Below are positions 3,980-64,000 of a stretch of DNA of 64,000 nucleotides, piece by piece. This DNA comes from an uncultured Eubacteriales bacterium. Lineage in GTDB: Bacteria > Bacillota > Clostridia > Oscillospirales > CAG-272. The DNA is taken from the NCBI GenBank assembly GCA_900546635.1, contig URDS01000004.1, positions 69 through 64,068 of the forward strand, written 5' to 3'. How positions within the stretch are numbered: the first letter of the stretch is position 1; every line of letters starts with the position of its first letter. Made by a program: the position numbers and the translations under genes. The notes below the pieces were generated by a model that did not search any database, had not been told where the DNA came from, and saw only the letters and a list, made by a program, of their open reading frames with translations.

Positions 3980-4798
3980 TTAATGGGTATGGTTTTCTTT
4001 TTGAAAGGCGGAGGGGCTCATGCCGGTCTGGCGCACAAAGTTCTGATAAAATCCCGCGTAGGTGCTAAAGCCGCACTGGGCGCAGACCTCGGCGGGCGCC
4101 AATCCTTCTCTGAGCAAGGCTTTGGCAAGCGAAATGCGTTTTGTTAAAATATAGCTGTGTACCGTGGCACAGGCGTAGTTTTTAAACTGCCGCAAAAGAT
4201 GGTATTTACTGATAAAAAACCGTTCGGCGATCTCCTCCAGGGACAGGTCCCGGGTAAAGTTTGCGTTGATGTAGCGAATGATCTCCCCCATACGGCGGTT
4301 GTCGCCTGCATCTGCGGGAAGGGCGGCATCCATATATTTTCCAAGATGCAGCAGTAACAATGTTACCGTTGCATCTCGTGTCAGCACCCCTGCTTCATCC
4401 GCGGTCAGTTGCAGCATGCTTTGCATCATACGGCCAAAGTCCCCATCGTTTTTTCCTAAAGAGATCCGATAGCTTTTGCTCTCCCGTCCCACAAAACTGT
4501 TCGGCGCGCGGCTGAGCAGCCGTTTGCAGTAATCTACCGAAAGGGTGAGGACCATACGCTCGTAAACGATCTTTTCGTTCACTGTCACCAATCGGTGCAG
4601 TTTGCCCGGCGGGATGACCAGCACATCTCCGGACACCAAAGAATAGCTTTCGTCTTCAATATAATACTGCACCTCTCCCGACAAAAAATATAATATTTCA
4701 TAATCGTCGTGGGTGTGAAAGTTAAAAGTGCGGTTTTTTTGGATAACCATATGATCGAGATGAAAATGCAGATCATTTACCCCGGATGTTTTCCGCAT
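3980..4798 (-). CDS. AraC-family transcriptional regulator (N-terminal cupin sensor plus C-terminal dual HTH)
   Basis: Cupin signature FHTHDDYEILYFLSGEV...GDVLVIPPGKLH. The C-terminal AraC HTH is LSLEEIAERFFISKYHLLRQFK...GFSTYAGFYQNFVRQTGMSPSAF. The start is set at the ATG 11 nt after AGGAG. Confidence 0.88.
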   Translation of the reverse strand: MRKTSGVNDLHFHLDHMVIQKNRTFNFHTHDDYEILYFLSGEVQYYIEDESYSLVSGDVLVIPPGKLHRLVTVNEKIVYERMVLTLSVDYCKRLLSRAPNSFVGRESKSYRISLGKNDGDFGRMMQSMLQLTADEAGVLTRDATVTLLLLHLGKYMDAALPADAGDNRRMGEIIRYINANFTRDLSLEEIAERFFISKYHLLRQFKNYACATVHSYILTKRISLAKALLREGLAPAEVCAQCGFSTYAGFYQNFVRQTGMSPSAFQKENHTH

Positions 4799-4914
4799 AT
4801 GGCATTTCACTCCTTTTTATTATCATATAGCAATTTTTTTAATAGTTCAAGCAATTTTACAAATTTACATTCAAAATCTTTCTGTTATACTAAAGGTATA
4901 CAGGAGGAAAATCC

Positions 4915-5769
4915 ATGGCGAAATTTGTTTTAAGCGCCTTTGCCGACGAGGCGGGCAAAGACTTGACAGCGCAGATCGACGCACTCAAGCGCAACGACAT
5001 TTCCCATATGGAGATCCGGGCGGTGAACGGTGTCAACATCTGTAAAACGCCGCTGAAAACCGTGGCGGAATATAAAAAACAGCTGGATGCGGCAGACATT
5101 CGCGTAATGACCGTTGGTTCCCCCGTCGGAAAGGTAAAGTTGACGGATAACTATGAAGAACATGTGGCCATGTTTTTACATACCTTGGGCGTTGCCCGTA
5201 TTTTAGAAGCCAAGCGCATCCGCATGTTTTCCATGTTTACCGACACACCCGAAGCCCACGAAGGCATTGTATTGGCCAAGCTGGAAGAGATGCTGGACAT
5301 TGCCAAGGGCACTGGTGTGACTTTGTACCACGAAAACGAAAAGGGCATTTACGGTGACACCGACACACGAGTGGCCAGACTGACGAATGCGTTCAAAGGA
5401 CGAATGGAATTTATCTTTGATCCCGCCAACTTTATTCAGTGCGGCGTAAAGCCCATAGAAGCCTATGCCAGGCTGAAAGACAGCATCGGTTATTTTCACA
5501 TTAAGGATGCATTGGCCGCCACCGGCAGTGTGGTCCCCGCAGGAAAGGGAGATGGCAGCATCGGCGACATTCTCAGTGATTTTGCCCGGACGCATGAAAA
5601 TGTAATGCTCACCGTTGAACCCCATTTGAAAAGTTTTGCAGGCATTCAAGACCCCGTCAGCATGAAAGCGGAAAAGGAGACCCTTTACAAGGACAACAAC
5701 GAATCCTTCGATGTAGCGGTAAAGGCGCTGAAAAATATTTTAGAGGAAAGAGGATTGAGTTATGAATAA
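4915..5769 (+). CDS. Sugar phosphate isomerase/epimerase family protein (xylose-isomerase-like TIM barrel)
   Basis: 284 aa with a typical AP_endonuc_2-like pattern (ISHMEIR, LYHENEKG, FIFDPANF, FHIKD...VEPHL). RBS is CAGGAGG. Confidence 0.75.
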   Translation: MAKFVLSAFADEAGKDLTAQIDALKRNDISHMEIRAVNGVNICKTPLKTVAEYKKQLDAADIRVMTVGSPVGKVKLTDNYEEHVAMFLHTLGVARILEAKRIRMFSMFTDTPEAHEGIVLAKLEEMLDIAKGTGVTLYHENEKGIYGDTDTRVARLTNAFKGRMEFIFDPANFIQCGVKPIEAYARLKDSIGYFHIKDALAATGSVVPAGKGDGSIGDILSDFARTHENVMLTVEPHLKSFAGIQDPVSMKAEKETLYKDNNESFDVAVKALKNILEERGLSYE

Positions 5770-6940
5770 ATTAAGAGTTGCCGTTATTGGCATCGGCAAT
5801 ATGGGCTCCGCCCATGCCAAGCACATTGCAGACGGCTGTGTCAAGGACATGCAGCTGACCGCCGTTTGCGACACCGACCCGGCAAAGCTGGACTGGGCTA
5901 AGGAAAAACTGCCCGACGTAACACAATACACCGATTGTCACAAACTGTTGGACGATCACATTTGTGACGCCATTGTAATCGCCACCCCGCATTATGACCA
6001 TCCCGTCATCGCCATTGAAGCCTTTAAAAAGGGCTATCATGTATTGAGTGAAAAGCCAGCGGGCGTTTACACCAAAAAGGTTCGGGAAATGAATGAAGCT
6101 GCCCGAAAGAGCGGCAAGACCTTTGCCTTGATGTACAATCAGCGCACGAATCCTTTATATCAAAAGGTGAGAGAAATGGTGCAGGGCGGCGCCATCGGCG
6201 TCCCGAAACGGCTGGTATGGATCATTACCAACTGGTACCGCACCCAGGCCTATTATGACAGCGGCGCATGGCGCGCCACCTGGGCGGGTGAAGGCGGCGG
6301 CGTACTGCTCAACCAGTGCCCCCACAATCTGGATCTGTGGCAATGGATCTTCGGCATGCCCAAAAGTATTACCGCAAAATGCTCGGTGGGCAAATATCAC
6401 GACATTGAAGTTGAGGATGATGTAACCATCACCGCCGAGTATGAAAACGGCGCTTCAGCCTGCTTTATCACCACCACGGGCGAATTTCCCGGAACCAACC
6501 GTCTGGAGATCTCAGGTGACAGAGGCAAGGTGGTCATTGAAGGAAAAGAGATGACTTTTTACAAATTGGAGATACCGGAACGGACGGTTAACGCTACCAG
6601 CAAAAAAAGCTTTGACAAGATTCCCTTTACTGTGGAAAAAACGGTGGTGGAGGACAGCGGCACCGCCCATGTGGGCATCTTGCAGAACTTTACCAATCAT
6701 ATTCTCTACGGCGAGGCGTTGATTTCCTCCGGTTATGAGGGCATCAACGGGCTGACCATTTCAAACGCCGCTTTTCTGTCGGATTGGTTGGGCAAAGAGA
6801 TCAATTTGCCCATGGACGAGGATCTGTTCTATACGTTGTTGCAGGAGCGCATTAAGACCTCCAAGCACAAAACCGCAGCATCTTCTGGCATTGAGGACTT
6901 GTCCGGCACTTATAACGAGCGGTGGCAAGGCAAGGCGTAA
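5762..6940 (+). CDS. Gfo/Idh/MocA-family NAD(P)-dependent oxidoreductase
   Basis: N-terminal Rossmann motif LRVAVIGIGNMGSAH and the EKP motif (VLSEKPAG). It overlaps the upstream gene by 8 nt. Confidence 0.88.
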   Translation: MNKLRVAVIGIGNMGSAHAKHIADGCVKDMQLTAVCDTDPAKLDWAKEKLPDVTQYTDCHKLLDDHICDAIVIATPHYDHPVIAIEAFKKGYHVLSEKPAGVYTKKVREMNEAARKSGKTFALMYNQRTNPLYQKVREMVQGGAIGVPKRLVWIITNWYRTQAYYDSGAWRATWAGEGGGVLLNQCPHNLDLWQWIFGMPKSITAKCSVGKYHDIEVEDDVTITAEYENGASACFITTTGEFPGTNRLEISGDRGKVVIEGKEMTFYKLEIPERTVNATSKKSFDKIPFTVEKTVVEDSGTAHVGILQNFTNHILYGEALISSGYEGINGLTISNAAFLSDWLGKEINLPMDEDLFYTLLQERIKTSKHKTAASSGIEDLSGTYNERWQGKA

Positions 6941-12002: not shown

Positions 12003-12365
12003 ATGAGTGTGCGGCGCGGAGATATTTTTTACGCCGACTTAAGCCCGGTTGTCGGGTCTGAGCAAGGCGGTTTGCGTCCTGTCCTGATTGTGCAGAACGA
12101 TGTGGGCAATAAGTACAGTCCGACGGTTATAGCCGCGGCGATCACGAGCAAAATGAGCAAAACACATTTGCCCACACATATTGACATATATGCGGACAAG
12201 GTCGGACTGCAAAAAGATTCGGTCGTCCTGCTGGAACAGATACGTACAATCGATAAACGGCGCCTGAAAGAAAAAATGGGGCACTTGGACGACGATGTAA
12301 TGAATCAGGTGAACAATGCGATCTCGATCAGCTTCGGTCTCGGCGGGGGCGGCGCAACCGGCTGA
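12003..12365 (+). CDS. mazF: MazF/EndoA (PemK-family) mRNA interferase toxin
   Basis: [43 protein letters not shown]....LPTH...[17 protein letters not shown] is nearly colinear with B. subtilis EndoA (NdoA). It adds a Gly-rich C-terminal tail. Confidence 0.92.
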
Positions 12366-13706: not shown

Positions 13707-14417
13707 ATGAAGTACAGTGAAAAAGTAAAAATCTACGGACAGGACGTGGATATGAACGGGATTCTGCGGCCGGCGTCTCTTTTAGCCATGCTGGAGGATG
13801 CCGGATCGCATCAAATGGCGGCTTATCCGCCCAGCAACGACGACCTTTTGAAAAGAGGCATGGTGTTTATCGCCAGCCGGATTGTCATGCAAATTTATCA
13901 AAATGTGCCGGACGGCGCGGAGGCGGAGGCGGTTACATGGGGAAGCGACGGACGCGGCGTGACGCATAACCGATGTTATCAACTGAACTGGAACGGGGAA
14001 GCGGCGGCGAAAGTGTTTTCTTCCTGGGCGCTTGTCCGCCTTGCCGACCGCAGTCTTGTGCGGTTCGGCGAGATTCAGCACGCGTTTGAGACCGAACCGC
14101 CGCTTGTGATAGATCTGCCGCTGCGCGTACGCATGCCGAGAAGCGAAGAATTTGAGCAGGTCGGAGAGCGTCCGGTCTACTTCAGCGATGCGGACGGCAA
14201 CGGACATATGAACAATACAAAATATATCTCCATGCTCTGCGATTTTGTTCCGGGGATTGAGAAGCGCGCTTTGCGCGGGATCAACATCAGCTATATGGCG
14301 GAAGCGCCGTATGGGGATGTGCTCTCTGTCTTTTGCAAAGAAGACGGCGACAGTTTTTATTTTAAGACGGTGCGCCGGGACGGAAAAGTCAACTGCGAAG
14401 CGGTTTTGTATTTTTAA
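13707..14417 (+). CDS. Acyl-ACP thioesterase family protein (double hot-dog fold)
   Basis: 236 aa. YGQDVDMNGILRPASLLAMLEDAG... and a second half ...DADGNGHMNNTKYISM are typical of FatA/B-like bacterial acyl-ACP thioesterases. Confidence 0.75.
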   Translation: MKYSEKVKIYGQDVDMNGILRPASLLAMLEDAGSHQMAAYPPSNDDLLKRGMVFIASRIVMQIYQNVPDGAEAEAVTWGSDGRGVTHNRCYQLNWNGEAAAKVFSSWALVRLADRSLVRFGEIQHAFETEPPLVIDLPLRVRMPRSEEFEQVGERPVYFSDADGNGHMNNTKYISMLCDFVPGIEKRALRGINISYMAEAPYGDVLSVFCKEDGDSFYFKTVRRDGKVNCEAVLYF

Positions 14418-14475
14418 CGGCACGGTGCGGCCGGGTTCGCGCCGACTTCCGGAAATTTTATATTCGGCGGACATT

Positions 14476-14510
14476 TGCGGCGCGTTTTGCGCCGCACGTT
14501 TGTTCTTTCT
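14476..14510 (+). terminator. Hairpin terminator after the thioesterase gene
   Basis: TGCGGCGC-GTTTT-GCGCCGCA followed by a T-rich run. Confidence 0.55.
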
Positions 14511-14677
14511 CGCAAATTGCATTTTTGCCGTCAAAAAACAGGAAAAATTCGGTTAAAAAATTCCGAAAAATTTTTGTTTTCAGAGAGGAATTTCCATGGG
14601 TGTTTCGACTAATTATAGAAAGCGTTAGAGCTTCTTCAAAAAAGTATTAACATTTCTTAAAATTTCATGAGAATATA

Positions 14678-14706
14678 TTGACGGCAAACATCGGACGTGT
14701 TATAAT
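14678..14706 (+). promoter_or_regulatory. Candidate sigma-A promoter of the 14.7-22.1 kb operon
   Basis: TTGACG-17 nt-TATAAT, about 55 nt upstream of the first permease start. Confidence 0.65.
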
Positions 14707-14760
14707 TGCTGTATTATTCAGGATAGAACAGTGACATGTGGAAAAAGGAGGAAATGCGCG

Positions 14761-15642
14761 GTGAAAAAAATCAGGCGGGATAAGCGCGAGCGTATCGAGC
14801 GCGCCAAGACCTCGCTGTTTATAGCGCCCTCTTTTATTGGCGCGGCGGTTTTCTTTATTTTGCCGTTTTTAGTGGTCGGCTATTATTCATTGATCGACAA
14901 CCCGATCAATCAGGAATTTGTAGGCATTGAAAATTATAAATACCTTTTGCAGAACAGCGCGTTTCGTTCGGCGGTGAAAAATACGGCTGTCTTTTCTGGA
15001 ATCGCAGTTCCGCTTGCGGTTGTGATTCCGCTTCTTTTTGCGGTGCTGCTGATGCGGAAAATGCCGTGCGCTTCGCTTTTTAAAACCATTTTAATCAGTC
15101 CCTTGATGGTGCCGACCGCTTCTGTTGTGCTGATCTGGGAAGTGCTTTTTCATTATGACGGCACGGTGAATCATTTCTTGTCCGCGTTCGGCATTGATCC
15201 AATCGACTTTTTTAAATCCAAATATGCCGTGGTCATTATCGTCTGCCTGTTTCTTTGGAAAAATATCGGATACAATATGATTCTGTTCATGGCGGCGCTT
15301 GCCAATATCCCGAAAGACATCACCGAAGCGTGTATGCTTGACGGCGCGGGACCGGTTCGGGTATTCTGGAAAATCAAACTGCCCTACATATCCTCAACGG
15401 TTCTGTTCGTAACGATTTTGTCTTTAATCAATTCGTTTAAAATTTTCCGTGAGGTTTACCTGATGACAGGTAATTATCCGTATAATACGCTTTACATGCT
15501 GCAGCATTTTATGAACAATACGTTTATCCAGTTGGATTATCAAAAATTGTCCGCCGCTGCGATCCTGATGTGCGCGGTGATGATTGTGCTGATCGGCGTG
15601 CTGTTCTTCATTGACAGCAAGTTTGGGAAGGATGTGGAATGA
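14761..15642 (+). CDS. Carbohydrate (CUT1-type) ABC transporter permease, MalF-like
   Basis: Six predicted hydrophobic spans and the EAA-loop motif ALANIPKDITEACMLDGAGPVRVFWKIKLP. I prefer the GTG start at 14761, 9 nt after AAGGAGG. The ORF-track start is 14731. Confidence 0.88.
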   Translation: MKKIRRDKRERIERAKTSLFIAPSFIGAAVFFILPFLVVGYYSLIDNPINQEFVGIENYKYLLQNSAFRSAVKNTAVFSGIAVPLAVVIPLLFAVLLMRKMPCASLFKTILISPLMVPTASVVLIWEVLFHYDGTVNHFLSAFGIDPIDFFKSKYAVVIIVCLFLWKNIGYNMILFMAALANIPKDITEACMLDGAGPVRVFWKIKLPYISSTVLFVTILSLINSFKIFREVYLMTGNYPYNTLYMLQHFMNNTFIQLDYQKLSAAAILMCAVMIVLIGVLFFIDSKFGKDVE

Positions 15643-16550
15643 GAGTGTCTGTACGCAAGAAGTTTCGGTCGGTGCGGCAGGGCACGGCTACCGCAATCAT
15701 CTTCCTGTTTTTCCTCGGCGTATGCATTGTATTCATTATGCCCACGCTTTTGACGTTTACCAATTCGTTGATGTCCAAAACCGAAATCGCGGCCAACTAC
15801 GGGCATGTGTTTGAAAGCGTATCCGGCGATGCCAAAACCTATGTCTCCGGCGACACCAATTTGAAGTTGATTCCGGATATGGTTGTTTTCGACCAGTATG
15901 AAAATGTACTCTTTAAAAACCCGCAGTATCTTCTGAAATTTTGGAACTCGATGATTTTGACGGTGCCTATCGTCGTGTTTCAGATTTTTGTTGCCTTACT
16001 TGCCTCATATGGCTTTGCCCGTTTTTCGGGAAAGCTCAGAAGTATCGTGTTTTTTACCTATGTGATTTTGATGCTGATGCCCTATCAGGTCACGCTGGTG
16101 CCGAATTATCTGGTTTCCGAGTGGCTCGGACTTTTGGATACGCGCCTTGCGATCATATTGCCGGGTATATTTTCACCCTTTGCGGTCTTTATACTCACCA
16201 AGTTTATGCGGCGAATCCCATATGCGATTATTGAGGCCGCAAAGCTGGACGGCGCGGGCGAAATCCAGATGTTTTTCCGCATCTGTCTGCCGATGTCCAA
16301 GGGAATTATCTATTCGGTTGCAATTTTGATTTTCATTGACTATTGGAATATGGTCGAGCAGCCGCTTGTTTTGATTAAAAACACGGATTTGCATCCGTTG
16401 TCGGTGTTCTTGTCTCAGATCAACACCGGAGATTCGGCGCTCGCTTTCGCGGTGGCCAGTATATATATGATTATTCCGATTCTCACGTTTTTGTACAGTG
16501 AGGATTATATCGTCGAGGGCGTCGCTTACGCCGGCGGCGTAAAGGGATAG
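15639..16550 (+). CDS. Carbohydrate (CUT1-type) ABC transporter permease, MalG-like
   Basis: EAA loop IPYAIIEAAKLDGAGEIQMFFRICLP. A 4-nt ATGA overlap with the upstream permease suggests translational coupling. Confidence 0.9.
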   Translation: MRVSVRKKFRSVRQGTATAIIFLFFLGVCIVFIMPTLLTFTNSLMSKTEIAANYGHVFESVSGDAKTYVSGDTNLKLIPDMVVFDQYENVLFKNPQYLLKFWNSMILTVPIVVFQIFVALLASYGFARFSGKLRSIVFFTYVILMLMPYQVTLVPNYLVSEWLGLLDTRLAIILPGIFSPFAVFILTKFMRRIPYAIIEAAKLDGAGEIQMFFRICLPMSKGIIYSVAILIFIDYWNMVEQPLVLIKNTDLHPLSVFLSQINTGDSALAFAVASIYMIIPILTFLYSEDYIVEGVAYAGGVKG

Positions 16551-16563
16551 GAGAGAGGTATTT

Positions 16564-18621
16564 ATGGAAGAGAAAAACAAACGGGGTTGGATTAAAAACG
16601 TCATCATTATTTTTCTTGTCGTTATGCTTTTGCTGACCCTATTTTCAAATACGATTATGAATCGCTCTCTGCCGGAGGTCGCGGTACAGTCCGCTGAAAG
16701 CGGTACGATTACGACGCAGGTGAAACTGAGCGGAACGGTCAGCGCCAATCAGACGCGGGAGATTTCGCTTGAAAATGCGCGCAAGGTGGATTCGGTACTT
16801 GTCCGCCGCGGAGACTATGTGGAGCGCGGCACGGTGCTTGCGACGCTGGTTGTGGGCGAGAGCAATGAGATTTTCGATGCCGAAATCGCGCTCAAACGTC
16901 TGGAAATCGAATATAAGCAGCTTTTGCTTGAAAGCGAGGACACCCTGATCGCCACGCGCTATGAATTGGAGGATAAGCAAAAGGAACTCGCGACGCTTCA
17001 GACATACATAGACGGTTACGGTGATCTTGAAACGGTCAAAAACAATTATCAGGCGCAGATTGATTTGATTCAGTTGGCGATTAAAGATTTGGATGAAAAG
17101 ATCGAATCGCTTGACAAGCAGCTGAGCAAGCTGACCGATTCGGGCTATACCGATATGAGTAAACTCAATCAGGCCATCGAAGAGGCGAAAGACGCGGTCA
17201 GCGATGCGGAATCCGCCTATAATTCGGCCAAGCGTGCCGCGCAGAAAGCGCAGACGGTTTACAACAATTCAAGCACGGTATATGGGGCGGCGGAACAGGA
17301 TTATGACGATGCGGTCGATGCGCGCAAAGACATAGAATCCAGTATCGAAACGCTGGGAACGCAGCTTGACAAGCTGAAAGAAGATCTTGCGACGATTCAG
17401 GAGCAGATTGACGCGCTGGTACCTCCCGGTCCGGATGCGACGGAGGAAGAGATCGCGGAATACAATCGGAAAAAGGCTGAACTGACCGATAAAAAAAGTG
17501 AGAAGAATGCGCAGATTCGCGATAAAAATGAGGAGATTACAAACAAAAAATCCGAGTTGAAGGACGCGAAAACGGCGGAATCCGATGCGCTTGAAAGCTT
17601 TAATTCTGCGGGTACCGCCATGAACACGGCGCATGCCAATTATACCAGCGCAAAGAGCGCAAAAGACAGCGCGGAGTCCTCGTATAAAGCGGCAAAGAAA
17701 CAGCTTGAAGATTTAAACGAGGGTTGGGAGTATGCGCTTTTGTCTTCCCGCAAGGAAGAAATCGAGGCGGAAAAGAAAGAAAAAGGCGAGCAGGTAGAGG
17801 AGCTTCAAAAGCAGTTGGATACGGTGATTGAAAAAATGCCGAAAACGCTGGAGGAGGCCGAAAATGAAAAGGTACAGCTGACGCGCAGCATCGAAAGTCT
17901 GGAATCTACCATTCGCCGGACCGAAGCAAACGAAGAGATCAACGGTCAGACCGAAGCGCTGGATATGGAAATCAAGCGTTCGGAAATTGACCGCAAAAAA
18001 GCAGAGATTGCCAAGTTAAAGGAGAAAGTGACTTCCACGGAAATCAAAGCGACGGTCAGCGGCACGATAAACAGTGTCAATATCGCTGCGGGCGATGAAG
18101 TGGAGGCAGGGCAGACTGTATTTGAAATTATTATGACCGATCAGGGTTATACGATGGAATGCAGCGTGACCAACGCGCAGGCGTCGAGACTCAGTGTAGG
18201 TCAGGAGGCCGAGGTTCAATATTATTATTGGGGTACAAAGCCGTCCGTCCGCATTTCCGCGATTAAGAATGATCCGAACAATTCGGGCAAGGGCAAATTG
18301 GTCACGTTCACCGTGGAGGGCGACATCAGCGACGGAACCAATTTGACCATTACGGTCGGAAGCCGCGGTTCCAGCTATGATACCATCGTGCCCAACAGCG
18401 CCATCCGTGAGGATTCCGAGGGCAAATTTGTATTGCTGGTTGTTTCAAAGCCGTCTCCGCTCGGAAACCGCTTCTTTGCGGAACGCAAAAATGTAGAGGT
18501 TCTGGCTTCGGATGCAACCAAGAGCGCGATTGACGCTACGCTGTCGTGGGGTGATTACATCATTACCAATTCTTCTGTGCCGATTTCGGACGGTATGCAG
18601 ATTCGGATGAGCGAAAAATAA
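16564..18621 (+). CDS. HlyD/MacA/YknX-type membrane-fusion (periplasmic adaptor) protein with a very long coiled-coil insert
   Basis: N-terminal TM (IIIFLVVMLLLTLF). Lipoyl half 1 is GTVSAN..VLVRRGDYVERGTVLATL. About 390 aa follow that are heptad-like and rich in E/K/A/L/Q. Lipoyl half 2 is IKATVSGTINSVNIAAGDEVEAGQTVFEI. A beta-barrel and membrane-proximal domains complete the protein. Confidence 0.8.
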   Translation: MEEKNKRGWIKNVIIIFLVVMLLLTLFSNTIMNRSLPEVAVQSAESGTITTQVKLSGTVSANQTREISLENARKVDSVLVRRGDYVERGTVLATLVVGESNEIFDAEIALKRLEIEYKQLLLESEDTLIATRYELEDKQKELATLQTYIDGYGDLETVKNNYQAQIDLIQLAIKDLDEKIESLDKQLSKLTDSGYTDMSKLNQAIEEAKDAVSDAESAYNSAKRAAQKAQTVYNNSSTVYGAAEQDYDDAVDARKDIESSIETLGTQLDKLKEDLATIQEQIDALVPPGPDATEEEIAEYNRKKAELTDKKSEKNAQIRDKNEEITNKKSELKDAKTAESDALESFNSAGTAMNTAHANYTSAKSAKDSAESSYKAAKKQLEDLNEGWEYALLSSRKEEIEAEKKEKGEQVEELQKQLDTVIEKMPKTLEEAENEKVQLTRSIESLESTIRRTEANEEINGQTEALDMEIKRSEIDRKKAEIAKLKEKVTSTEIKATVSGTINSVNIAAGDEVEAGQTVFEIIMTDQGYTMECSVTNAQASRLSVGQEAEVQYYYWGTKPSVRISAIKNDPNNSGKGKLVTFTVEGDISDGTNLTITVGSRGSSYDTIVPNSAIREDSEGKFVLLVVSKPSPLGNRFFAERKNVEVLASDATKSAIDATLSWGDYIITNSSVPISDGMQIRMSEK

Positions 18622-18632
18622 GGAGGTCGGCT

Positions 18633-19625
18633 GTGAAGAAACGGGTACTGGTTTTTGGCGTCCTTATGGCGGTGTTTCTTGCGCTCGCGTTTTCGCTCGG
18701 CGCCGCTCGGCGTTCTGTGACGGCGGGGTATGACCGTGACTTTGCGGCGGACCGTTTTCGGGGGACGAATACAAATAAGTATACGCAGCTTTCTCTCTAT
18801 TGTACCGAGCAGGATTATCTGACGCCCGACGGCATGATGGCGATTAAAAATTCGATTGAATCCGGACTTACGGCCGAAAGTCTGCCGACCGCGGGAAATT
18901 ATCTGCTTTGCGCGTCGGTTGAAAAAGATGTGACCATTGCGCGGGATCAGAATACAGTTAATGCGATTGCGACGGTTTATTTCGGGGATTATTTCGGTCT
19001 GCATCCTGAGATCCCGCAGACCGGCGGCTATCTTGATGAGTCGGACGCAACCACCGAGTTCTGCGCGATTGATGATTTTGCGGCGTGGCGGCTGTTCGGC
19101 TCGGTCGATGTATGCGGGATGGATTTGGAGATCAACGGAAAATTTTACACAATTTCCGCGGTGTTGACTGCCGATCGAAGCACGTATTCTGAATATTACG
19201 GCATCACGCCCAGGGTTTATATTTTATATAATTCTGCGGCAATGCGAAATCAAAATTTGACTTTTACATCGCTTGAGGCTGTTTTGCCGGATCCGATTAC
19301 GGATTTCGGCCGGGATTTATTTGCTTCCGCAACTTCCGCTTACGGCGAGGAGGTCGTCGTCAATCATGAACGGTTTACGCCGCTCCGCCTGTGGGAAAAG
19401 ATCAAGGGAATGACGGCGCTCGGTGTCATGACCGGGGCGTCGTATCCATATTATGAAAACGTGTCGCGCATTATGGAAACCAAATGCGCCATGCTGCTGA
19501 CCTTTGAAGCGGTATCGTGGATATTGACTGCGGCGATGTTGATTTGTCTTGCCGTATCTGTTTTTCGTCCGCTTCTCAGACGGTATCATGAAAAACGAAG
19601 AGCGCGTAAAATACACGCATTTTAA
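18633..19625 (+). CDS. Two-TM membrane protein with a MacB-periplasmic-core-like domain and no FtsX domain
   Basis: GTG start 7 nt after AAGGAGG. TM1 is VLVFGVLMAVFLALAF. The extracytoplasmic segment VYFGDYFGL....IDDFAAWRLFGSVDVCGMDLEINGKFYTISAVL...RVYILYNSA resembles MacB_PCD. There is a single C-terminal TM and then a basic tail. Confidence 0.6.
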   Translation: MKKRVLVFGVLMAVFLALAFSLGAARRSVTAGYDRDFAADRFRGTNTNKYTQLSLYCTEQDYLTPDGMMAIKNSIESGLTAESLPTAGNYLLCASVEKDVTIARDQNTVNAIATVYFGDYFGLHPEIPQTGGYLDESDATTEFCAIDDFAAWRLFGSVDVCGMDLEINGKFYTISAVLTADRSTYSEYYGITPRVYILYNSAAMRNQNLTFTSLEAVLPDPITDFGRDLFASATSAYGEEVVVNHERFTPLRLWEKIKGMTALGVMTGASYPYYENVSRIMETKCAMLLTFEAVSWILTAAMLICLAVSVFRPLLRRYHEKRRARKIHAF

Positions 19626-19636
19626 GGAGGAACAGA

Positions 19637-22072
19637 ATGAAGAAAATTGTCAGGATTATCAGCTTTGTATTGGCCGCGCTGTTGGCGCTTTCGGTTTTGG
19701 CTGCTTGCGGCGGCGGGAAGAAAATGCCCGAAAAGCAGGTGGTTGACCATGTGTATAAGTACAACCAGACAAAGCTTGTGACCGTGGAAGAGCCGGATTG
19801 GTCGAATGAGGAAGAGTTCAACGGGTATACATATTTGTCTAATAACTCTATCGGAGAGAGCGGTTTTTGCTATGTGCTGCAAAGCGTGGATAAGGATCAC
19901 AAAACCACATCCACGGTTGCCTATATCGGAACCTATGACGGTACGGAGGTCACGGAAATTCCGATAGACTTGGCGAATGATGAAAACAACAGCGCCTACA
20001 TGAATAACATTTTGGTGTTGGATAACGGTCTTGCTGTTTTTATCAATGAAAGTAAACAGGTGGGTGATCCGGAAACCCCTTTCTGGGAGCAGTATTATTA
20101 TCTGTATTTTTATGATTTTGACGGGAAGCTCACCGGTACGGTAGATTTGAAAAAAGCTTTCGATGTCAGCGGCGAAAATTCTTATTTCTATGTGAATACG
20201 ACGCTGACCGACGGCACGGATCTGTATTTAACCTGCAATACGGATAAGGCTGAATATAACAATAAATTGGTACGCCTCGGCATGGACGGCACGGTTAAAA
20301 ATGCGTATGCGCTGCTGCCGGAGGGGACCGACGGGTATATCAACAGCATTTATTTTATCGGTGATTCTGAGATCTGCTATACGTATGAGAGCTACGGTTC
20401 GGATACGTATACGACGGTCTGCAAGCGCTATAATTTTGAAACCGGCGCACAGTCGGAGGTGAATACCGGGGATCTCGGACGTCAGTTCTCCTATAGTTCA
20501 TTCGGCGGCAACGGCGGTGCATATTATTCCGACAATTCCGGTATTTATAAAGTGGATCTCGATACCGGCGCGAAGACCGAACTGATGAACTACATCAATT
20601 CCGATTATATTTATAATTACGGTAATTTCTGCGCGCTGGGCGACGATCGGTTTGCGTCCCTGACACGCGAGTACAAGGATAACAAGACCACGCTGTATGT
20701 GAATACTTTTGAAAAAGTACCGGAAAGCGAGCTTACGCCGAAATATTTGATTACGGTTGCGTCGGCGGGTTATGCATACGATTTTCAGGAGCAGATCGTA
20801 AAGTTTAACCTTGCCAGTGAAGAATATCGCATTCAATATGTCGATTATTCTCAGTACAATACCGATGAGGATTATACTGCGGGCAAGACAAAGCTGAACA
20901 ATGATATTCTGGCCGGCAATGTCCCGGATGTACTCATTTCCGATTCGGAATTTTCGGTATCCAAATACGTCAATAAAGGACTGTTTAAGGATCTCTATAC
21001 CTATTTGGACAATGATCCCGAACTTTCCAGAGATGACTTTTTAGGGAATATCCTTGAGGCTTGTGAAATCGGCGGAAAATTGTATGAGATTCCGACCAGC
21101 TTCGTTGTGATGGGACTTATGGGCGGCAAGGAGAAAATCGGCGAGTTTGCAAATTTGACGATGCCTGAGTTTGCCGCAAAGGTGGCTGCATTGCCGGAGG
21201 AAGTGTCCTTCTTCCGCGCGGGCGAAGTTTCAAGAGCCAATATGCTGCAGATGCTTGTGTATCTGGGCTATACGAATTTTATCGATACGGCGACCGGAAA
21301 GTGCAACTTCAACAACGATGATTTTAAAGCAATCCTGGAATATGTAAATACACTGCCCGAAAAGTCTCGGTGGGAAGATGAAAATTATAATCCCGATGAT
21401 TTTGACTGGGACGCTTATAACAATGCGTTTAAAGAGGGCAAAGCGATAGCGGAAATGACTACGCTTGATTCTTTCTATGCTTTCGAGAATCAGTCTTACA
21501 ATTTCGGCAGTATGGAATTGGATTTCATCGGCATGCCTTCGCCTGACCGCGACGGTTATGTCTTTACCAATGCCAATCTGAAATTCCTTGTCAGTGCGAA
21601 GAGTCCGCTGGCGGATGAGGCTTGGAATTTTGTCAAGCTGTTCTTTGAGGATTCGTATCAGACAGAGAGTTCTTGGGCGTTTTCGGTAACAAAGGACGGA
21701 TTTGAACAGCAGAAACAGAAGGCTTTGGATGAAATTAAACGGCGCGAGGAAGAAAAGAAAGAGCAGGAAGATTCCGATATCGAAATTTCACCTCGCACCA
21801 AAGAAGTTGCCGTTACCGACGCTGTAATCGGCGGCGGTGGAATTGCGATTGAACCCGGTTGGGGAAATGATCGCAGAGAGATGACCGCAGAGGATGTGGA
21901 GCGCATTGCGGAGATCGCAACCGGTGTACGTAAACAGCTCGTTTATGATGAAAATGTATACAATATCATCAGCGAGGAAGCATCGGCTTATTTTGCGGGG
22001 AAAAAGAGCTTGGCCGAGGTTGCGTCTTTGATTGAAAATCGCGTACAAACCGTAATCAGCGAATCCAGATAA
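19637..22072 (+). CDS. 811-aa lipoprotein: beta-rich N-terminal domain fused to a family-1-like extracellular solute-binding domain
   Basis: Signal peptide plus lipobox LSVLAAC-GGG. Residues ~25-360 are Y/T/G/D-rich beta-type repeats. Residues ~370-811 resemble sugar SBPs (YLITVASAGYAYDF...DILAGNVPDVLIS...). RBS is AAGGAGG. Confidence 0.75.
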   Translation: MKKIVRIISFVLAALLALSVLAACGGGKKMPEKQVVDHVYKYNQTKLVTVEEPDWSNEEEFNGYTYLSNNSIGESGFCYVLQSVDKDHKTTSTVAYIGTYDGTEVTEIPIDLANDENNSAYMNNILVLDNGLAVFINESKQVGDPETPFWEQYYYLYFYDFDGKLTGTVDLKKAFDVSGENSYFYVNTTLTDGTDLYLTCNTDKAEYNNKLVRLGMDGTVKNAYALLPEGTDGYINSIYFIGDSEICYTYESYGSDTYTTVCKRYNFETGAQSEVNTGDLGRQFSYSSFGGNGGAYYSDNSGIYKVDLDTGAKTELMNYINSDYIYNYGNFCALGDDRFASLTREYKDNKTTLYVNTFEKVPESELTPKYLITVASAGYAYDFQEQIVKFNLASEEYRIQYVDYSQYNTDEDYTAGKTKLNNDILAGNVPDVLISDSEFSVSKYVNKGLFKDLYTYLDNDPELSRDDFLGNILEACEIGGKLYEIPTSFVVMGLMGGKEKIGEFANLTMPEFAAKVAALPEEVSFFRAGEVSRANMLQMLVYLGYTNFIDTATGKCNFNNDDFKAILEYVNTLPEKSRWEDENYNPDDFDWDAYNNAFKEGKAIAEMTTLDSFYAFENQSYNFGSMELDFIGMPSPDRDGYVFTNANLKFLVSAKSPLADEAWNFVKLFFEDSYQTESSWAFSVTKDGFEQQKQKALDEIKRREEEKKEQEDSDIEISPRTKEVAVTDAVIGGGGIAIEPGWGNDRREMTAEDVERIAEIATGVRKQLVYDENVYNIISEEASAYFAGKKSLAEVASLIENRVQTVISESR

Positions 22073-22115
22073 ATCCCGGCAAAAAACTGAAAAAGCATTG
22101 TATTTTTGACACAAC

Positions 22116-22150
22116 AGACAGCCGCCGAAATTCGGCGGCTGTCTCGGCTT
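22116..22150 (+). terminator. Rho-independent terminator of the 14.7-22.1 kb operon
   Basis: AGACAGCCGCCGAA-A-TTCGGCGGCTGTCT followed by CGGCTTTT. Confidence 0.8.
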
Positions 22151-22259
22151 TTGCCGTGATTTTCCGTCGCGGCTTCGCTTAGCACAATGTTGCAGATGTT
22201 ATACGGATATGGTAGAATATGGTGTAAACAAACAATTTGCAAAATGGGGGCAAAAAATT

Positions 22260-23141
22260 ATGAACAGGTTCAAGATCGCTCTGCTGCAAACAGCGCCGTG
22301 CGGTACGGTAAATGAAAATTTAAAAAAAGGCGTCGCCATCTGTAAAGACGCGAGAAAAATGGGCGCCGACCTTGCACTTTTCCCCGAAATGTGGAGCAAC
22401 GGATACAATATATACAATCGGCCTATTGAGGAATGGAAAGCCGAAGCGATTCCCGCCGACGGTGATTTTATAAACACGTTTGCCCGTCTTGCAAAAGAAC
22501 TGAATATGGCAATCGGCATTACCTTATTGGAACAATACGGAGCGCATTTGCGAAATACAATGGTTCTATTTGATCGGTTCGGAGAACGCAAACTGACCTA
22601 TGCTAAGGTACACACCTGCGATTTTGACGTGGAACGGAATCTCACGCCGGGCGAAGATTTTTATGTCACTGCCCTGAATACAGCCTGCGGGGAAGTAAAG
22701 GTCGGCGCCATGATTTGTTATGACCGGGAATTTCCGGAAAGCGCCAGAATTTTGATGTTGAAAGGCGCGGAGCTTATTCTGGTTCCGAATGCTTGCCCTA
22801 TGGAAATAAACCGCCTTTCACAGCTTCGCGGCAGAGCATATGAAAATATGTTGGCCATCGCTACCTGCAACTATCCTGAAACCGTTCCCGATTGTAACGG
22901 CGGTTCAAGTGTGTTTGACGGCGCGGTCTATCTGCCCGGTGCGGACGGTTCGCGGGATACCTGTATTTTGCAGGCGGACGGAAAAGAGGGAATTTATATT
23001 GCCGAACTTGATTTGGAACAACTTCGCTGTTATCGTGAAAACGAAGTACACGGCAATGCGTATCGGCACCCGAAAAAATACAGACTTTTAATCGATACCA
23101 AAATCGAAAGTCCGTTTGTCAGAGACGATTATCGGGAGTAA
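22260..23141 (+). CDS. Carbon-nitrogen hydrolase (nitrilase superfamily) protein
   Basis: E-K-C triad context: LALFPEMW (Glu), YAKVH (Lys), GAMICYDREFPE (Cys). The start MNRFKIALLQ follows GGGGG. Confidence 0.85.
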   Translation: MNRFKIALLQTAPCGTVNENLKKGVAICKDARKMGADLALFPEMWSNGYNIYNRPIEEWKAEAIPADGDFINTFARLAKELNMAIGITLLEQYGAHLRNTMVLFDRFGERKLTYAKVHTCDFDVERNLTPGEDFYVTALNTACGEVKVGAMICYDREFPESARILMLKGAELILVPNACPMEINRLSQLRGRAYENMLAIATCNYPETVPDCNGGSSVFDGAVYLPGADGSRDTCILQADGKEGIYIAELDLEQLRCYRENEVHGNAYRHPKKYRLLIDTKIESPFVRDDYRE

Positions 23142-61078: not shown

Positions 61079-62017
61079 ATGAAAAAACAACTCACAATTG
61101 CGTTTTCACTGGCTGCAATATCCGCCGCACTTGCACTGGGCTCTTCTGCACTTGACGGCGGCCAGGTACATGTGAAAACGACGCTGAATGTTCGGACGGA
61201 ACCGAGTATTGGATCGACAGTGAAAGCTTCGCTGTATGACGGACAGGTTATCACGCTGCATGACAAGACGGGAAACTGGTGGCATATTGAGTACGGCGAC
61301 GGTTTGTATGGCTATGCCTCCGCATCGTACATACAGGCGCTGGGTCTGCCGGTCGCGACTGTGCAAACGAATGGATCGAACTTAAACGTGCGCAGCGGGG
61401 CGGGGTTGGGCTATTCGGTAAAAGGAAAACTGAAAAACGGCGAGACTGTGCTTTGCCTCGGTACATACGGAAATTTCATCAAGGTGCTTTATAACGGAAA
61501 TTCGGTGGGATATGTGGCCTCGCAGTATCTTGCGGTGTCCAAAGATACCCTGGCCGAACCGATAAATCTCAGCGTAACTTCGTATAAGCAGTATGACAGC
61601 CGCTGGGCGCGTCTGACGCTGCCGGGCAGCGGGGAGAGCCTGCGTACGCACGGATGCGCGGTCACAGCGCTTGCCATGACCGAGAGCTATCGCCGCGGTA
61701 CAACCGTAACGCCGGGGGATATTTTGCAAAGCGAAAAATTCACATCAACCGGTGCGATTTACTGGCCGGCCGGTTATAGCGTCGGGAAAGCGACCGATGT
61801 ATCGTTTTTGCATGCCAATTTAGCGGCGGGCAAACCGGTTATCGTACATGCGAAGAAAGCGAACGGTTCGATGCATTTTGTCGTTGTGTACGGTTATACG
61901 GGCGAGGGATTGGATACAAAGAATTTTAAAGTTCATGATCCCGGATCCGAAACCCGTACAACGCTTGCGGATTTTTATGCCGTGTATCCGTATATTGTTA
62001 AAACACTTGTTTATTAA
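61079..62017 (+). CDS. Secreted protein with two bacterial SH3 domains and a C-terminal C39-like cysteine peptidase domain
   Basis: Signal peptide. SH3b-like LNVRTEPSIGSTVKASLYDGQVITL...WWHIEY..GYASASYI and LNVRSGAGLGYSVKGKLKNGETV. The C-terminal SYKQYDSRWA...THGCAVTALAM...MHFVVVYGY is a peptidase_C39_2-like pattern. Confidence 0.7.
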   Translation: MKKQLTIAFSLAAISAALALGSSALDGGQVHVKTTLNVRTEPSIGSTVKASLYDGQVITLHDKTGNWWHIEYGDGLYGYASASYIQALGLPVATVQTNGSNLNVRSGAGLGYSVKGKLKNGETVLCLGTYGNFIKVLYNGNSVGYVASQYLAVSKDTLAEPINLSVTSYKQYDSRWARLTLPGSGESLRTHGCAVTALAMTESYRRGTTVTPGDILQSEKFTSTGAIYWPAGYSVGKATDVSFLHANLAAGKPVIVHAKKANGSMHFVVVYGYTGEGLDTKNFKVHDPGSETRTTLADFYAVYPYIVKTLVY

Positions 62018-62041
62018 ATTTTGTCCGTTCTCCGTCTGTTG

Positions 62042-62071
62042 AAAAAGTCCGGCTTTGAGCCGGGCTTTTTC
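62042..62071 (+). terminator. Hairpin terminator
   Basis: AAAGTCCGGC-TTTGA-GCCGGGCTTTTT. Confidence 0.75.
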
Positions 62072-62189
62072 TGCATAATATGGTAAAATAAAATTATAAA
62101 CGACTTCGTGTATTTATCTCCATTTGTGCGGGATTATCTCCGTTTAATCTGTGGATTCTTATCGTGAGAATATCGGTGGTCTTATGTAA

Positions 62190-62567
62190 AAAAAGCCAAA
62201 GGATGGGTGGGCGACGCTTTTAGACGATGATAGCGCGGCAAAAATTATTTCTCTATTAAATAATAGAAATTTTTGCAAAGCACTTTCAACAATTATCAAA
62301 GCAAATATGACTTCGTTTACATTTTCATCCCTATGCCACACTTGCAAAATAGAACAGACAAGCGAGTTTAAGGATGTACTGTTATCGAGTGGATTTTTTG
62401 ATGTGAAATCGGTAAAGATTGATGAAAACGATATGGAAATTTATGATTTTAGACAATCTCAGCGTTTATTTCTGATTTTTGCAATTTTACAATACGCAAA
62501 AGAATTTGCGAATTACAAGGAAAGATGTTATTATTACTTTGGCGATTCTAACTTTTTGAAAGAATAA
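62190..62567 (+). other. AT-rich open frame without a usable start upstream of ATG 62307; a possible 5'-truncated gene remnant or small hypothetical gene
   Basis: The frame is open from the stop at 62187-62189 to TAA 62565-62567. I found no ATG, GTG or TTG before ATG 62307 and no RBS at 62307. A hairpin CCGCCTG-CCACTG-CGGGCGG follows at ~62576-62595. Confidence 0.25.
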
Positions 62568-62677
62568 AACTATGCCGCCTGCCACTGCGGGCGGAATTAA
62601 AATTTTTATAAAATTCATCGAATCAAATCCAAAATTTGCGACTTATAGGTGAAAGCTTGGGGGGAGACGATACAAAT

Positions 62678-64000
62678 ATGAATCAAGAAATCAATAATTA
62701 CGTAGAGTATCTGTTCACTCTTGCTTTGCGTAAGTGCGGAGATATGCACGATGCCGAGGACTTAACACAAGATACATTATTTGCCGCTTATCAATATCTT
62801 TATAGAGGCGGCGAAATAACCAATATGAAATATTGGCTCGCCTCAACGCTTTCTCACAAATGGAATGATAAATTGAGAAAGAAATATAGGCTTCCGATTG
62901 TCAGCATTGAAGCTTACGGTGACACAACGGAGGACATTGCGGACGATTGTGAAGATTGTCGTCCTTGTGCCGAGGAAGTTCGGCGCGAGGTGGCGTATTT
63001 GGCTAAGCTATACCGCGAAGTTATTGTTTTGCATTATATGCAGGGAATGAAGGTGGATGAAATAGCGGCAAAACTTGGCATTCCCAAGGGTACGGTTCTA
63101 TCAAGATTATCGACAGGCAGAGAGCAGATACGGAAAGGATTTGATGAAATGGAAATTTACGAAAAACATAGCTATAAGCCTGAACGCTTAGACGTTGTTT
63201 GTCACGGGTATCAAGGTTTTCATGACGAGCCTTGGTCGCTTGTCGCAAATGATATGATGAGACAAAACATTTTGATTATTGCTTATGAGAAGCCTGTTTC
63301 CGTTGTCGAAATTTCCAAAGCTCTTGGCATACCGACTGCCTATGTGGAGGCGGCGGTTAACGACCTTGTAAAATCCGAGCTTATGGCAAGAGTTGGCAGC
63401 AAGGTATTTACCGACTTCATGATAACAACTCCCGAACAAAAGCTTCATGGGTTGGATGCGGAAATTGACTTAGTAGAACGAAACTATTCTGCGCTTATGT
63501 CCTTGGTCAATGAATATCTGTGTGAATTAGACTTACAGCTTATTGTTAGGCGTCTCACAGAAAGCAAGCAAAAGAAACTCAAATATTATTTTTTGCTACA
63601 TCTGTTCTCACACGCTATTTATGTAGCAACACAACGAATTGTGCCGTCAAAGGAAGAATATCCCGTTCGTCCGGATGGCGGCAGATGGATTGCGATAGGC
63701 TCTCGCTATCCTGAGGATTTTGATTTTAGCTCTTACCGCTTCGGGCAGTATTGCTACGGCGGTGAACGAGGAACATATTGGGAGTATTTTTTAGGCTCTA
63801 AATCAATAAATTTGAGGGTATATGATACACAACCCGACTTGAACTTATATCAGCACGGCAAAGTAGAGCTTAGCGACGATAATCTTTCGAAACTCTTATA
63901 TATCATATCAAGGCAAATCCCTTTTGAAGCGACAGGATTTAATATGATGTTTTGCGAGGATATACCGCATCTTGTTAAATGCGGTATACTTGGCAAGAGT
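62678..64000 (+). CDS. ECF-type sigma-70 family sigma factor with a long C-terminal extension (partial; it runs off the window)
   Basis: It is absent from the ORF track because no stop falls inside the window. ATG 62678 follows GGGGGGAG. My translation is MNQEINNYVEYLFTLALRKCGDMHDAEDLTQDTLFAAYQYL (region 2) ... EVIVLHYMQGMKVDEIAAKLGIPKGTVLSRLSTGREQIRKG (region 4), then more than 270 further codons in the same open frame to position 64000. Confidence 0.8.
   Translation, partial: MNQEINNYVEYLFTLALRKCGDMHDAEDLTQDTLFAAYQYLYRGGEITNMKYWLASTLSHKWNDKLRKKYRLPIVSIEAYGDTTEDIADDCEDCRPCAEEVRREVAYLAKLYREVIVLHYMQGMKVDEIAAKLGIPKGTVLSRLSTGREQIRKGFDEMEIYEKHSYKPERLDVVCHGYQGFHDEPWSLVANDMMRQNILIIAYEKPVSVVEISKALGIPTAYVEAAVNDLVKSELMARVGSKVFTDFMITTPEQKLHGLDAEIDLVERNYSALMSLVNEYLCELDLQLIVRRLTESKQKKLKYYFLLHLFSHAIYVATQRIVPSKEEYPVRPDGGRWIAIGSRYPEDFDFSSYRFGQYCYGGERGTYWEYFLGSKSINLRVYDTQPDLNLYQHGKVELSDDNLSKLLYIISRQIPFEATGFNMMFCEDIPHLVKCGILGKS

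Follow-up and report, generated by a model that had tools for sequence, protein, structure and literature searches.

The closest described relatives of the protein considered here are the MacA adaptor of the MacAB-TolC pump of Escherichia coli and its counterparts in the Spr0693-0695 system of Streptococcus pneumoniae and the YknWXYZ system of Bacillus subtilis, with which it has in common a transmembrane (TM) anchor, a lipoyl domain split by an alpha-helical hairpin, a beta-barrel and a membrane-proximal domain. The gene in question lies in a stretch of 64,000 nucleotides (the window) from an uncultured Eubacteriales bacterium of the CAG-272 lineage (assembly GCA_900546635.1, contig URDS01000004.1, positions 69 to 64,068 of the forward strand), in a five-gene operon that also encodes two importer-type permeases of the ATP-binding cassette (ABC) class, perm1 and perm2, a MacB-like protein that we call u330 and a large solute-binding lipoprotein, SBP811. 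With the MacAB systems the operon further shares the MacB fold of first TM helix, periplasmic domain and second TM helix, which is that of u330. It differs from them in its hairpin, for which about 190 residues per arm (about 27 nm) are predicted, against 70 Å for the stem of MacA (PMC5985334), and in having importer-type ABC subunits and neither FtsX TM helices 3 and 4, nor a MacB ATPase, nor TolC. A four-TM permease with MacB_PCD and FtsX domains and a MacB-type ATPase, as in a MacAB-type (type VII ABC) pump, was not found at the locus, and no TolC or other OEP-family protein was found in the genome.

Among solved adaptors, EmrA of Aquifex aeolicus and HlyD have the longest hairpins, likewise two helices within a lipoyl domain. 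The coiled coil of EmrA measures 127 Å (PMC4158417), less than half of what is predicted here, and EmrA and HlyD work with transporters of the major facilitator superfamily or type IV ABC exporters and TolC, whereas the present adaptor is linked to importer genes. On the side of uptake, the CUT1 importers (MalFGK2-MalE, UgpABCE, MsmEFGK) are built from the same parts as our operon and its relatives, namely two BPD_transp_1 permeases, an SBP_bac_1 lipoprotein and a MalK-type ATPase with OB_MalK and TOBE domains; the binding protein here differs in being about twice the usual size and in carrying a beta-propeller. To our knowledge, no CUT1 system has been described with an adaptor and a MacB-like subunit.

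Two further comparisons concern shape. The Mce1 fatty-acid importer of mycobacteria is likewise an ABC importer, has a helical needle able to span the envelope and provides an earlier example of uptake through an elongated protein structure (bioRxiv 10.1101/2022.12.08.519548); it is an analogy alone, as its MCE-domain proteins are unrelated, its needle is made of C-terminal helices and it has no lipoyl/beta-barrel adaptor. PrgA of Enterococcus and the coiled coils of RipA and other FtsEX partners are also long antiparallel two-helix structures of Gram-positive envelopes, and they gave the best structural overlays in the VIA search. Their stalks bear an enzyme or adhesin domain, however, whereas the adaptor hairpin returns to the lipoyl domain after a short tip loop, and the likeness is confined to the coiled coil.

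We suggest that the protein is a wall-spanning, MacA-like adaptor and a fixed subunit of a conserved hybrid ABC uptake module of five or six genes that contains no efflux pump, a reading to which we assign a probability of about 0.5. More notable than the length of the hairpin is the conserved hybrid itself, in which an importer, a MacA-like adaptor and a MacB-half protein occur together. In open-access full texts and bioRxiv we found no description of an adaptor or a MacB-like domain inside the operon of a binding-protein-dependent importer; section 5.7.2 of PMC8277102 and the corresponding passages of PMC5985334 discuss Gram-positive adaptors with MacB-type partners only.

The evidence for the hybrid is gene linkage. 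A scan of species-representative genomes returned at least 660 candidate stretches, at least 655 of which were confirmed to hold a relative of the adaptor; almost all are metagenome-assembled genomes of Oscillospiraceae, Eubacteriales and other Clostridia, mostly from gut and rumen, joined by the cultured Yeguia hominis NSJ-40 (locus L042), whose insert of 205 residues is the shortest observed. Gene order was counted in 76 related loci. In 70 of them the perm1-perm2 pair immediately precedes the adaptor gene, the remaining six beginning at a contig edge, and in 74 the gene that comes next after the adaptor is u330 (of the two exceptions, one locus is cut and the other retains about 310 nucleotides). 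A large propeller/solute-binding lipoprotein is encoded beside the module in 67 loci, and all nine others have a cut flank. The order is kept wherever the flanks permit, down to 30% identity. In 11 of the 76 loci the next gene after u330 encodes an ATPase, which was of the MalK type (ABC_tran, OB_MalK, TOBE_2) in all four cases examined; there, the genes of a single importer, permeases on one side and ATPase on the other, enclose those of the adaptor and u330.

Within the window the same genes stand close together (Table 1), the start of perm2 overlapping the stop of perm1 by 4 nucleotides and the following gaps being 13, 11 and 11 nucleotides. A terminator-like hairpin at 14476-14496 ends the gene upstream of the promoter-like site. 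The best NCBIfam matches of perm1 are UgpA, GlcT and MalF, each under its equivalog cut-off. SBP811 consists of an N-terminal beta-propeller (about residues 30-400) and a family-1 solute-binding domain (about residues 405-811); the family profile of the former matches the designed Cake/Bagel propellers (E 7e-12) and PQQ-type propellers (E 1e-6), and the closest solved binding protein is CbpC (E 1e-6). The operon thus holds two BPD_transp_1 permeases and a family-1 solute-binding protein, the CUT1 arrangement that is kept in the related loci, with the MalK-type ATPase gene absent from it and present elsewhere in the genome as one stand-alone copy, on contig C44, whose product would power perm1/perm2. 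The preliminary description of this DNA, drawn from its letters and open reading frames, had placed the adaptor in the right family and had overlooked these partners: permeases, a solute-binding lipoprotein and a MacB-half protein, with no efflux pump among them.

The membership of u330 in the MacB lineage is visible solely through its family profile and its fold. Pfam MacB_PCD is matched by 39 of 40 family members at E <= 0.1 (best 1.2e-12), the copy in the window having no Pfam match by itself, and a BLASTP comparison with the FtsX permease of the same genome gave nothing (E 2.5). Searched against the Protein Data Bank (PDB), the family profile finds structures of the MacB periplasmic domain (E 2e-8). 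The AlphaFold2 model, with a mean predicted local distance difference test score (pLDDT) of 88.5 and a predicted template modelling score (pTM) of 0.81, is aligned by Foldseek with Spr0695 and with the MacB proteins of Acinetobacter baumannii and E. coli (E 7e-11 to 2e-10); the matched region, of about 338 columns, comprises TM1, the periplasmic domain and TM2. Neither Pfam, nor a TM scan, nor the model shows an FtsX domain, FtsX TM helices 3 and 4, or an ATPase domain in u330, and from the extent of the match we take it to be half of a MacB permease. The family comprises 702 clusters at 50% identity with E <= 1e-30, its members being mostly of 330-400 residues. Longer, fused forms were searched for and none was found, which is weak evidence. 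In one representative of 1089 residues (P0198), u330 continues into a lipoprotein signal peptide and a propeller/solute-binding protein, which is probably a read-through or a gene-calling merge rather than a real fusion.

The adaptor itself was recognised as a membrane-fusion protein in the preliminary description, and this assignment is supported. It carries the Pfam domains Biotin_lipoyl_2 (residues 74-95), Biotin_lipoyl (491-522) and HlyD_3 (494-588, E 4.5e-12), exceeding the Pfam cut-offs for HlyD_3 and Biotin_lipoyl_2, and it narrowly misses that of NCBIfam TIGR01730 RND_mfp (92.6 bits against 94.9), a shortfall probably due to the long insert, which would break the match in two. The best adaptor in a profile search of the PDB is MacA (5nik_D, 9qgy_G; E 4e-10), with a match that takes in the TM helix; an SMC coiled coil, a compositional match, ranks just ahead of it. 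The AlphaFold2 model, built from 72 family sequences (mean pLDDT 84.2), finds EmrA (best, E 3e-11), AcrA, MacA, MexA and BesA at the top of a Foldseek search (E 3e-11 to 1e-8). In the VIA overlays, BesA, AcrA and MexA cover model residues 34-685, and residues 63-523 fit the biotin carboxyl carrier protein with a root-mean-square deviation (rmsd) of 1.6 Å over 71 residues when the insert is skipped, as would be expected of a split lipoyl domain; strands at 493-682 make up the beta-barrel and the membrane-proximal part. The protein thus has the N-terminal anchor, the split lipoyl domain with hairpin, and the beta-barrel and membrane-proximal domains that characterise the HlyD-MacA-AcrA superfamily of periplasmic adaptors. 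Its most conserved segment is residues 1-45, the cytoplasmic tail, TM helix and juxtamembrane motif, where the mean share of the commonest residue in the 72 aligned rows is 0.73, the corresponding figure for the insert being 0.29. Conservation of this kind suggests that the segment has a conserved partner within the membrane; the juxtamembrane motif is absent from the MacB-linked paralogous adaptor of the same genome.

The insert occupies residues 102-491 (390 residues; nucleotides 16867-18036), between the two lipoyl halves. The preliminary description had called it poor in Pro and Gly and heptad-like and had pointed to a Pro-containing stretch near its middle, and these statements hold, as does the residue count, both motifs quoted there having been found. 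Glu (14.9%), Lys (11.5%), Ala (11.3%), Leu (9.2%) and Asp (7.9%) are abundant, and there are 4 Pro (287, 288, 290 and 426) and 10 Gly. Periodicity at 3.5 residues has a power of 2.53, compared with 0.18 +/- 0.17 after shuffling (0 of 2000 shuffles as high), and the windowed heptad sum is 34.4, compared with 9.2 +/- 2.0 (0 of 1000). The Pro-containing stretch, DALVPPGPDATEEE, spans residues 283-296 and includes the sole Pro cluster of the insert (P287, P288, G289, P290), at its midpoint.

Three lines of evidence bear on the shape of this insert. The AlphaFold2 model has two long helices with no globular or multi-helix bundle, as the preliminary description had proposed, and pLDDT exceeds 90 across about residues 140-440. 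The overlays come from solved structures: residues 199-399 superpose on the two-helix coiled coil of RipA with an rmsd of 3.3 Å over 193 residues and on the hairpins of colicin, YscO and the dynein stalk at 3-6 Å. The insert as a whole finds partners in two long antiparallel coiled coils, the PrgA stalk on residues 102-480 (349 residues, Z 15.9, rmsd 10.7) and that of Rad50 on residues 96-491 (374 residues, rmsd 15.7). We read these overlays as fitting an elongated, somewhat jointed hairpin rather than a folded bundle. The third line consists of insertions and deletions in an alignment of 16 sequences, the protein of the window with 15 relatives that are 45% identical or more, taking residue 288 as the mirror axis. 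An insertion at residue 175 (+6, +14 or +21) is paired with +7 at 403 in 13 of 13 relatives, the mirror position of 175 being 401, and the larger arm-1 insertions are matched by a further +7, +12 or +15 at residue 420; in the two relatives without the arm-1 insertion, the net change at 400-403 is 0. One deletion, at 272, has its counterpart at 301 (mirror position 304), and insertions at 277-300 fall at the predicted tip, where no partner is required. Together, the modelled helices, the overlays on solved hairpins and the mirrored indels support an extended antiparallel two-helix hairpin predicted to turn at PPGP 287-290. An alpha-helix rises by about 1.5 Å per residue, so that 184-194 residues per arm would reach about 27-29 nm if the joints (189-197/387, and near 124-126 and 424-428) are taken as straight; the preliminary description had estimated 25-30 nm, and the modelled arms would give roughly 27 nm.

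Table 1. Features of the adaptor operon, in positions of the window
Feature	Position	Strand	Evidence
Promoter-like site TTGACG, 17-nucleotide spacer, TATAAT, TG extension	14678..14706	+	11 of 12 consensus positions; consensus match alone
perm1, ABC importer-type permease, 303 aa, about 6 TM helices, MalF/UgpA-like	14731..15642	+	Pfam BPD_transp_1 E 8e-12; TM scan
perm2, second importer-type permease, 303 aa, 6 TM helices, MalG/UgpE-like	15639..16550	+	Pfam BPD_transp_1 E 2e-10; NCBIfam GlcU, UgpE, MalG
Adaptor (membrane-fusion protein), MacA-like, 685 aa	16564..18621	+	Pfam; NCBIfam; PDB profile match; AlphaFold2; Foldseek
Adaptor N-terminal TM helix, aa 13-31, with conserved juxtamembrane motif	16600..16656	+	Hydropathy; AlphaFold2 helix 8-34
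Predicted hairpin arm 1, aa 101-284, breaks 124-126 and 189-197	16864..17415	+	AlphaFold2 helices 101-123, 127-188, 198-284
Predicted hairpin turn, aa 285-293 (LVPPGPDAT)	17416..17442	+	Non-helical in AlphaFold2; sole Pro cluster; mirrored indels
Predicted hairpin arm 2, aa 294-487, breaks 387 and 424-428	17443..18024	+	AlphaFold2 helices 294-386, 388-423, 429-487
C-terminal lipoyl half, beta-barrel and membrane-proximal domain, aa 493-682	18040..18609	+	Pfam HlyD_3; AlphaFold2 strands
u330, two-TM protein, 330 aa	18633..19625	+	TM helices 5-23, 293-311; MacB_PCD family profile; AlphaFold2; Foldseek
SBP811 lipoprotein, 811 aa, lipobox LAAC, Cys24	19637..22072	+	Signal peptide/lipobox scan; Pfam SBP_bac_1 412-675, E 3e-11

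The preliminary description had further called the length of the insert exceptional, and whether it is depends on the comparison. No solved adaptor hairpin in the literature cited here reaches half the length predicted for this one. Compared with its own relatives the insert is ordinary, the 72 family members having inserts of 205-582 residues with a median of 373, and it is not singular among adaptors of Clostridia either. HlyD_3 was surveyed in 300 Clostridia genomes, 200 of which had a match, and frame lengths were taken from the best 150 matches, with 445 others outside that set. Among these best 150, open frames have a median of 448 residues and a second peak at 550-650; 45 are of at least 550 residues, 24 of at least 600 and 6 of at least 690, the frame of the present gene being 692. 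Long adaptors form a second size class of their own in Clostridia, and the ESM Atlas likewise holds many clusters of Bacillota adaptors, of 488-743 residues. The sole other adaptor of the genome (contig C76, locus L006: 2940-7086) has 727 residues, a 386-residue insert and an AAPEPDE motif at the insert midpoint, and its operon is an ordinary one that continues with a MacB-type ATPase (233 residues) and an FtsX permease (418 residues). The uniqueness of the insert length was overstated. In six genomes that hold both kinds of adaptor, the frame lengths are 692/739, 716/720, 743/591, 576/514, 490/315 and 553 versus 572-624; these genomes are not independent, and the figures are suggestive of a tendency for adaptor lengths to agree inside one genome.

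The Gram-positive-type envelope assumed in the preliminary description fits the genome. At 98.5% completeness it has no match to OEP/TolC or to Omp85 (BamA), both of which are matched in diderm control genomes, and the organism looks monoderm. With these proteins absent, the adaptor hairpin cannot bridge to an outer membrane.

Starting from the domain identities, the predicted hairpin and the gene linkage, we would picture the oligomeric state, the contacts, the direction of transport and the handling of a substrate as follows. One N-terminal TM helix would anchor the adaptor, with the lipoyl, beta-barrel and membrane-proximal domains near the membrane and two helices of about 185-194 residues projecting outward. 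If it behaves as MacA does, the adaptor would oligomerise and dock onto u330 at the outer domain that resembles MacB, and the conserved TM segment of the adaptor may touch the membrane subunits. Together the long hairpins could then form, again by analogy, a tube or stalk about 27 nm long that crosses the wall of the monoderm cell and would link a binding-protein-dependent importer with the cell surface. A bolder proposal, which we regard as possible but doubtful, is that the module represents an undescribed class of Gram-positive uptake machine, combining a type I ABC importer with a MacA-like adaptor and a MacB-derived half-permease. In such a machine a tube of about 15-40 nm would cross the wall. 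Each species would have hairpins of a length suited to its own envelope, and substrates caught at the surface of the wall, or outside it, would pass to the transporter with none lost on the way, making the machine the monoderm equivalent of envelope-spanning importers such as Mce1.

Several observations weigh against a wall-spanning uptake module. Peptidoglycan is generally held to be porous to small solutes, which makes the need for an uptake tube doubtful, and a binding protein of 90 kDa could presumably not enter a MacA-like funnel. The genes that flank the module are mixed housekeeping genes, with one glycoside hydrolase among 73 neighbours, and they give no hint of a substrate. As to the hairpin, pLDDT at its base (residues 100-130 and 450-490) is just 65-78, and the helix breaks of the model are partly mirrored, 189-197 lying opposite 387 and 124-126 not lying opposite 424-428. 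Superposed as a whole on long coiled coils, the insert gives rmsd values of 10-19 Å, which implies a bent or jointed hairpin. Three small indels (238-4, 321-7 and 190+4) are unpaired. When the turn was sought from Pro and Gly positions, it came to lie within 0.4-0.6 of the insert in just 15 of the 72 family members, and the arm lengths calculated from such misplaced turns mean nothing (r = -0.78); across the family, mirrored Pro/Gly sites number 70 of 283, against 59.7 +/- 6.4 expected, which is not significant (127 of 2000 randomisations as high).

Other interpretations of the same locus can be proposed. Hairpins that serve as struts or a scaffold, holding the wall off the membrane or fencing in a periplasm-like space so that bulky lipoproteins can reach the transporter, with no passage through the hairpins themselves, are in our view an unlikely alternative. 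It would suit a binding protein as large as SBP811 with its added propeller, as well as those loci in which two or three paralogous binding proteins would all need access. A poorly conserved hairpin of widely varying length is what one expects of a spacer, and the tendency of adaptor lengths to agree within those six genomes points the same way; set against this, the passages of PMC5985334 on solved relatives (MacA, AcrA, EmrA and HlyD) have all of them forming a closed tube. We consider it improbable that the adaptor and u330 expel a peptide, lipid or glycan in the manner of MacAB, with the importer-type subunits acting as motor or sensor. The two proteins are closest to MacA and MacB, which both work outward, and the genome carries a classical long-hairpin adaptor-MacB operon on contig C76. 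However, u330 is without FtsX TM helices 3 and 4 and an ATPase domain, the sole linked ATPase is of the MalK type, and the linked permease and binding-protein families, those of type I ABC importers, are known solely as importers.

Slightly less probable again is mechanotransmission of the kind known for FtsEX with EnvC, PcsB or RipC, where the motion of an ABC transporter would be relayed through the MacB-like domain and the coiled coil onto the wall, for instance for hydrolase control. The MacB/FtsX-type outer domain of u330, the overlay of the hairpin on the coiled coil of the peptidoglycan hydrolase RipA and an amidase gene that adjoins the module in one related locus (L016) could be cited for it; yet neither the adaptor nor the conserved module contains a hydrolase domain, that amidase is one of 73 neighbours examined, and likeness between coiled coils tells little about function. 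The existing annotation, an HlyD-family efflux adaptor, would make this an ordinary adaptor with coincidental neighbours, and a pTM of just 0.41 for the AlphaFold2 model might be taken to mean that the insert is no extended hairpin. Both notions are largely refuted and very improbable: the conserved gene order and the 11 loci in which the adaptor and u330 are enclosed by permease and MalK genes contradict coincidence, and the overlays together with the mirrored indels oppose a compact fold.

The module is spread patchily, its u330 profile matching 11 of 300 Clostridia genomes, 5 of 178 genera and none of 10 genomes of the same order. In the closest distinct relative (locus L007, adaptor 84% identical), serine recombinase/resolvase genes lie on both sides of the module, at 4271-5929 and 13859-14464, and these flanks and the patchy spread hint that it moves horizontally. 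Five loci (L012, L039, L067, L073 and L074) hold two or three paralogous genes for propeller/solute-binding lipoproteins per permease set, an arrangement that would be in keeping with one transporter supplied with several ligands. A search of 14300-22300 of the window for riboswitches and other known RNAs found none, one weak small-RNA match there remaining under its gathering score. Elsewhere in the window, the GC content of positions 62001-64000 is 0.39, compared with 0.45-0.54 in the rest, and an open reading frame of 120 residues at 12003-12365 (+) presumably encodes a protein resembling the MazF/PemK-type toxin of a toxin-antitoxin pair.

Adaptors are usually understood as connecting efflux pumps to an outer-membrane duct, and in the relevant passages of PMC5985334 their role in cells without an outer membrane is an open question. 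Here, an adaptor with a very long predicted hairpin is genetically tied to an importer and accompanied by a stripped-down MacB domain, and at least 655 stretches are confirmed to carry a relative of it. Should the proteins make up a single complex, the docking module of MacA and MacB would be reusable outside efflux, and the natural series of insert lengths, from 205 to 582 residues (predicted hairpins of about 15 to 43 nm), provides a direct way to ask whether hairpin length follows the thickness of the wall. The module may matter for nutrient acquisition by abundant and little-studied gut anaerobes.

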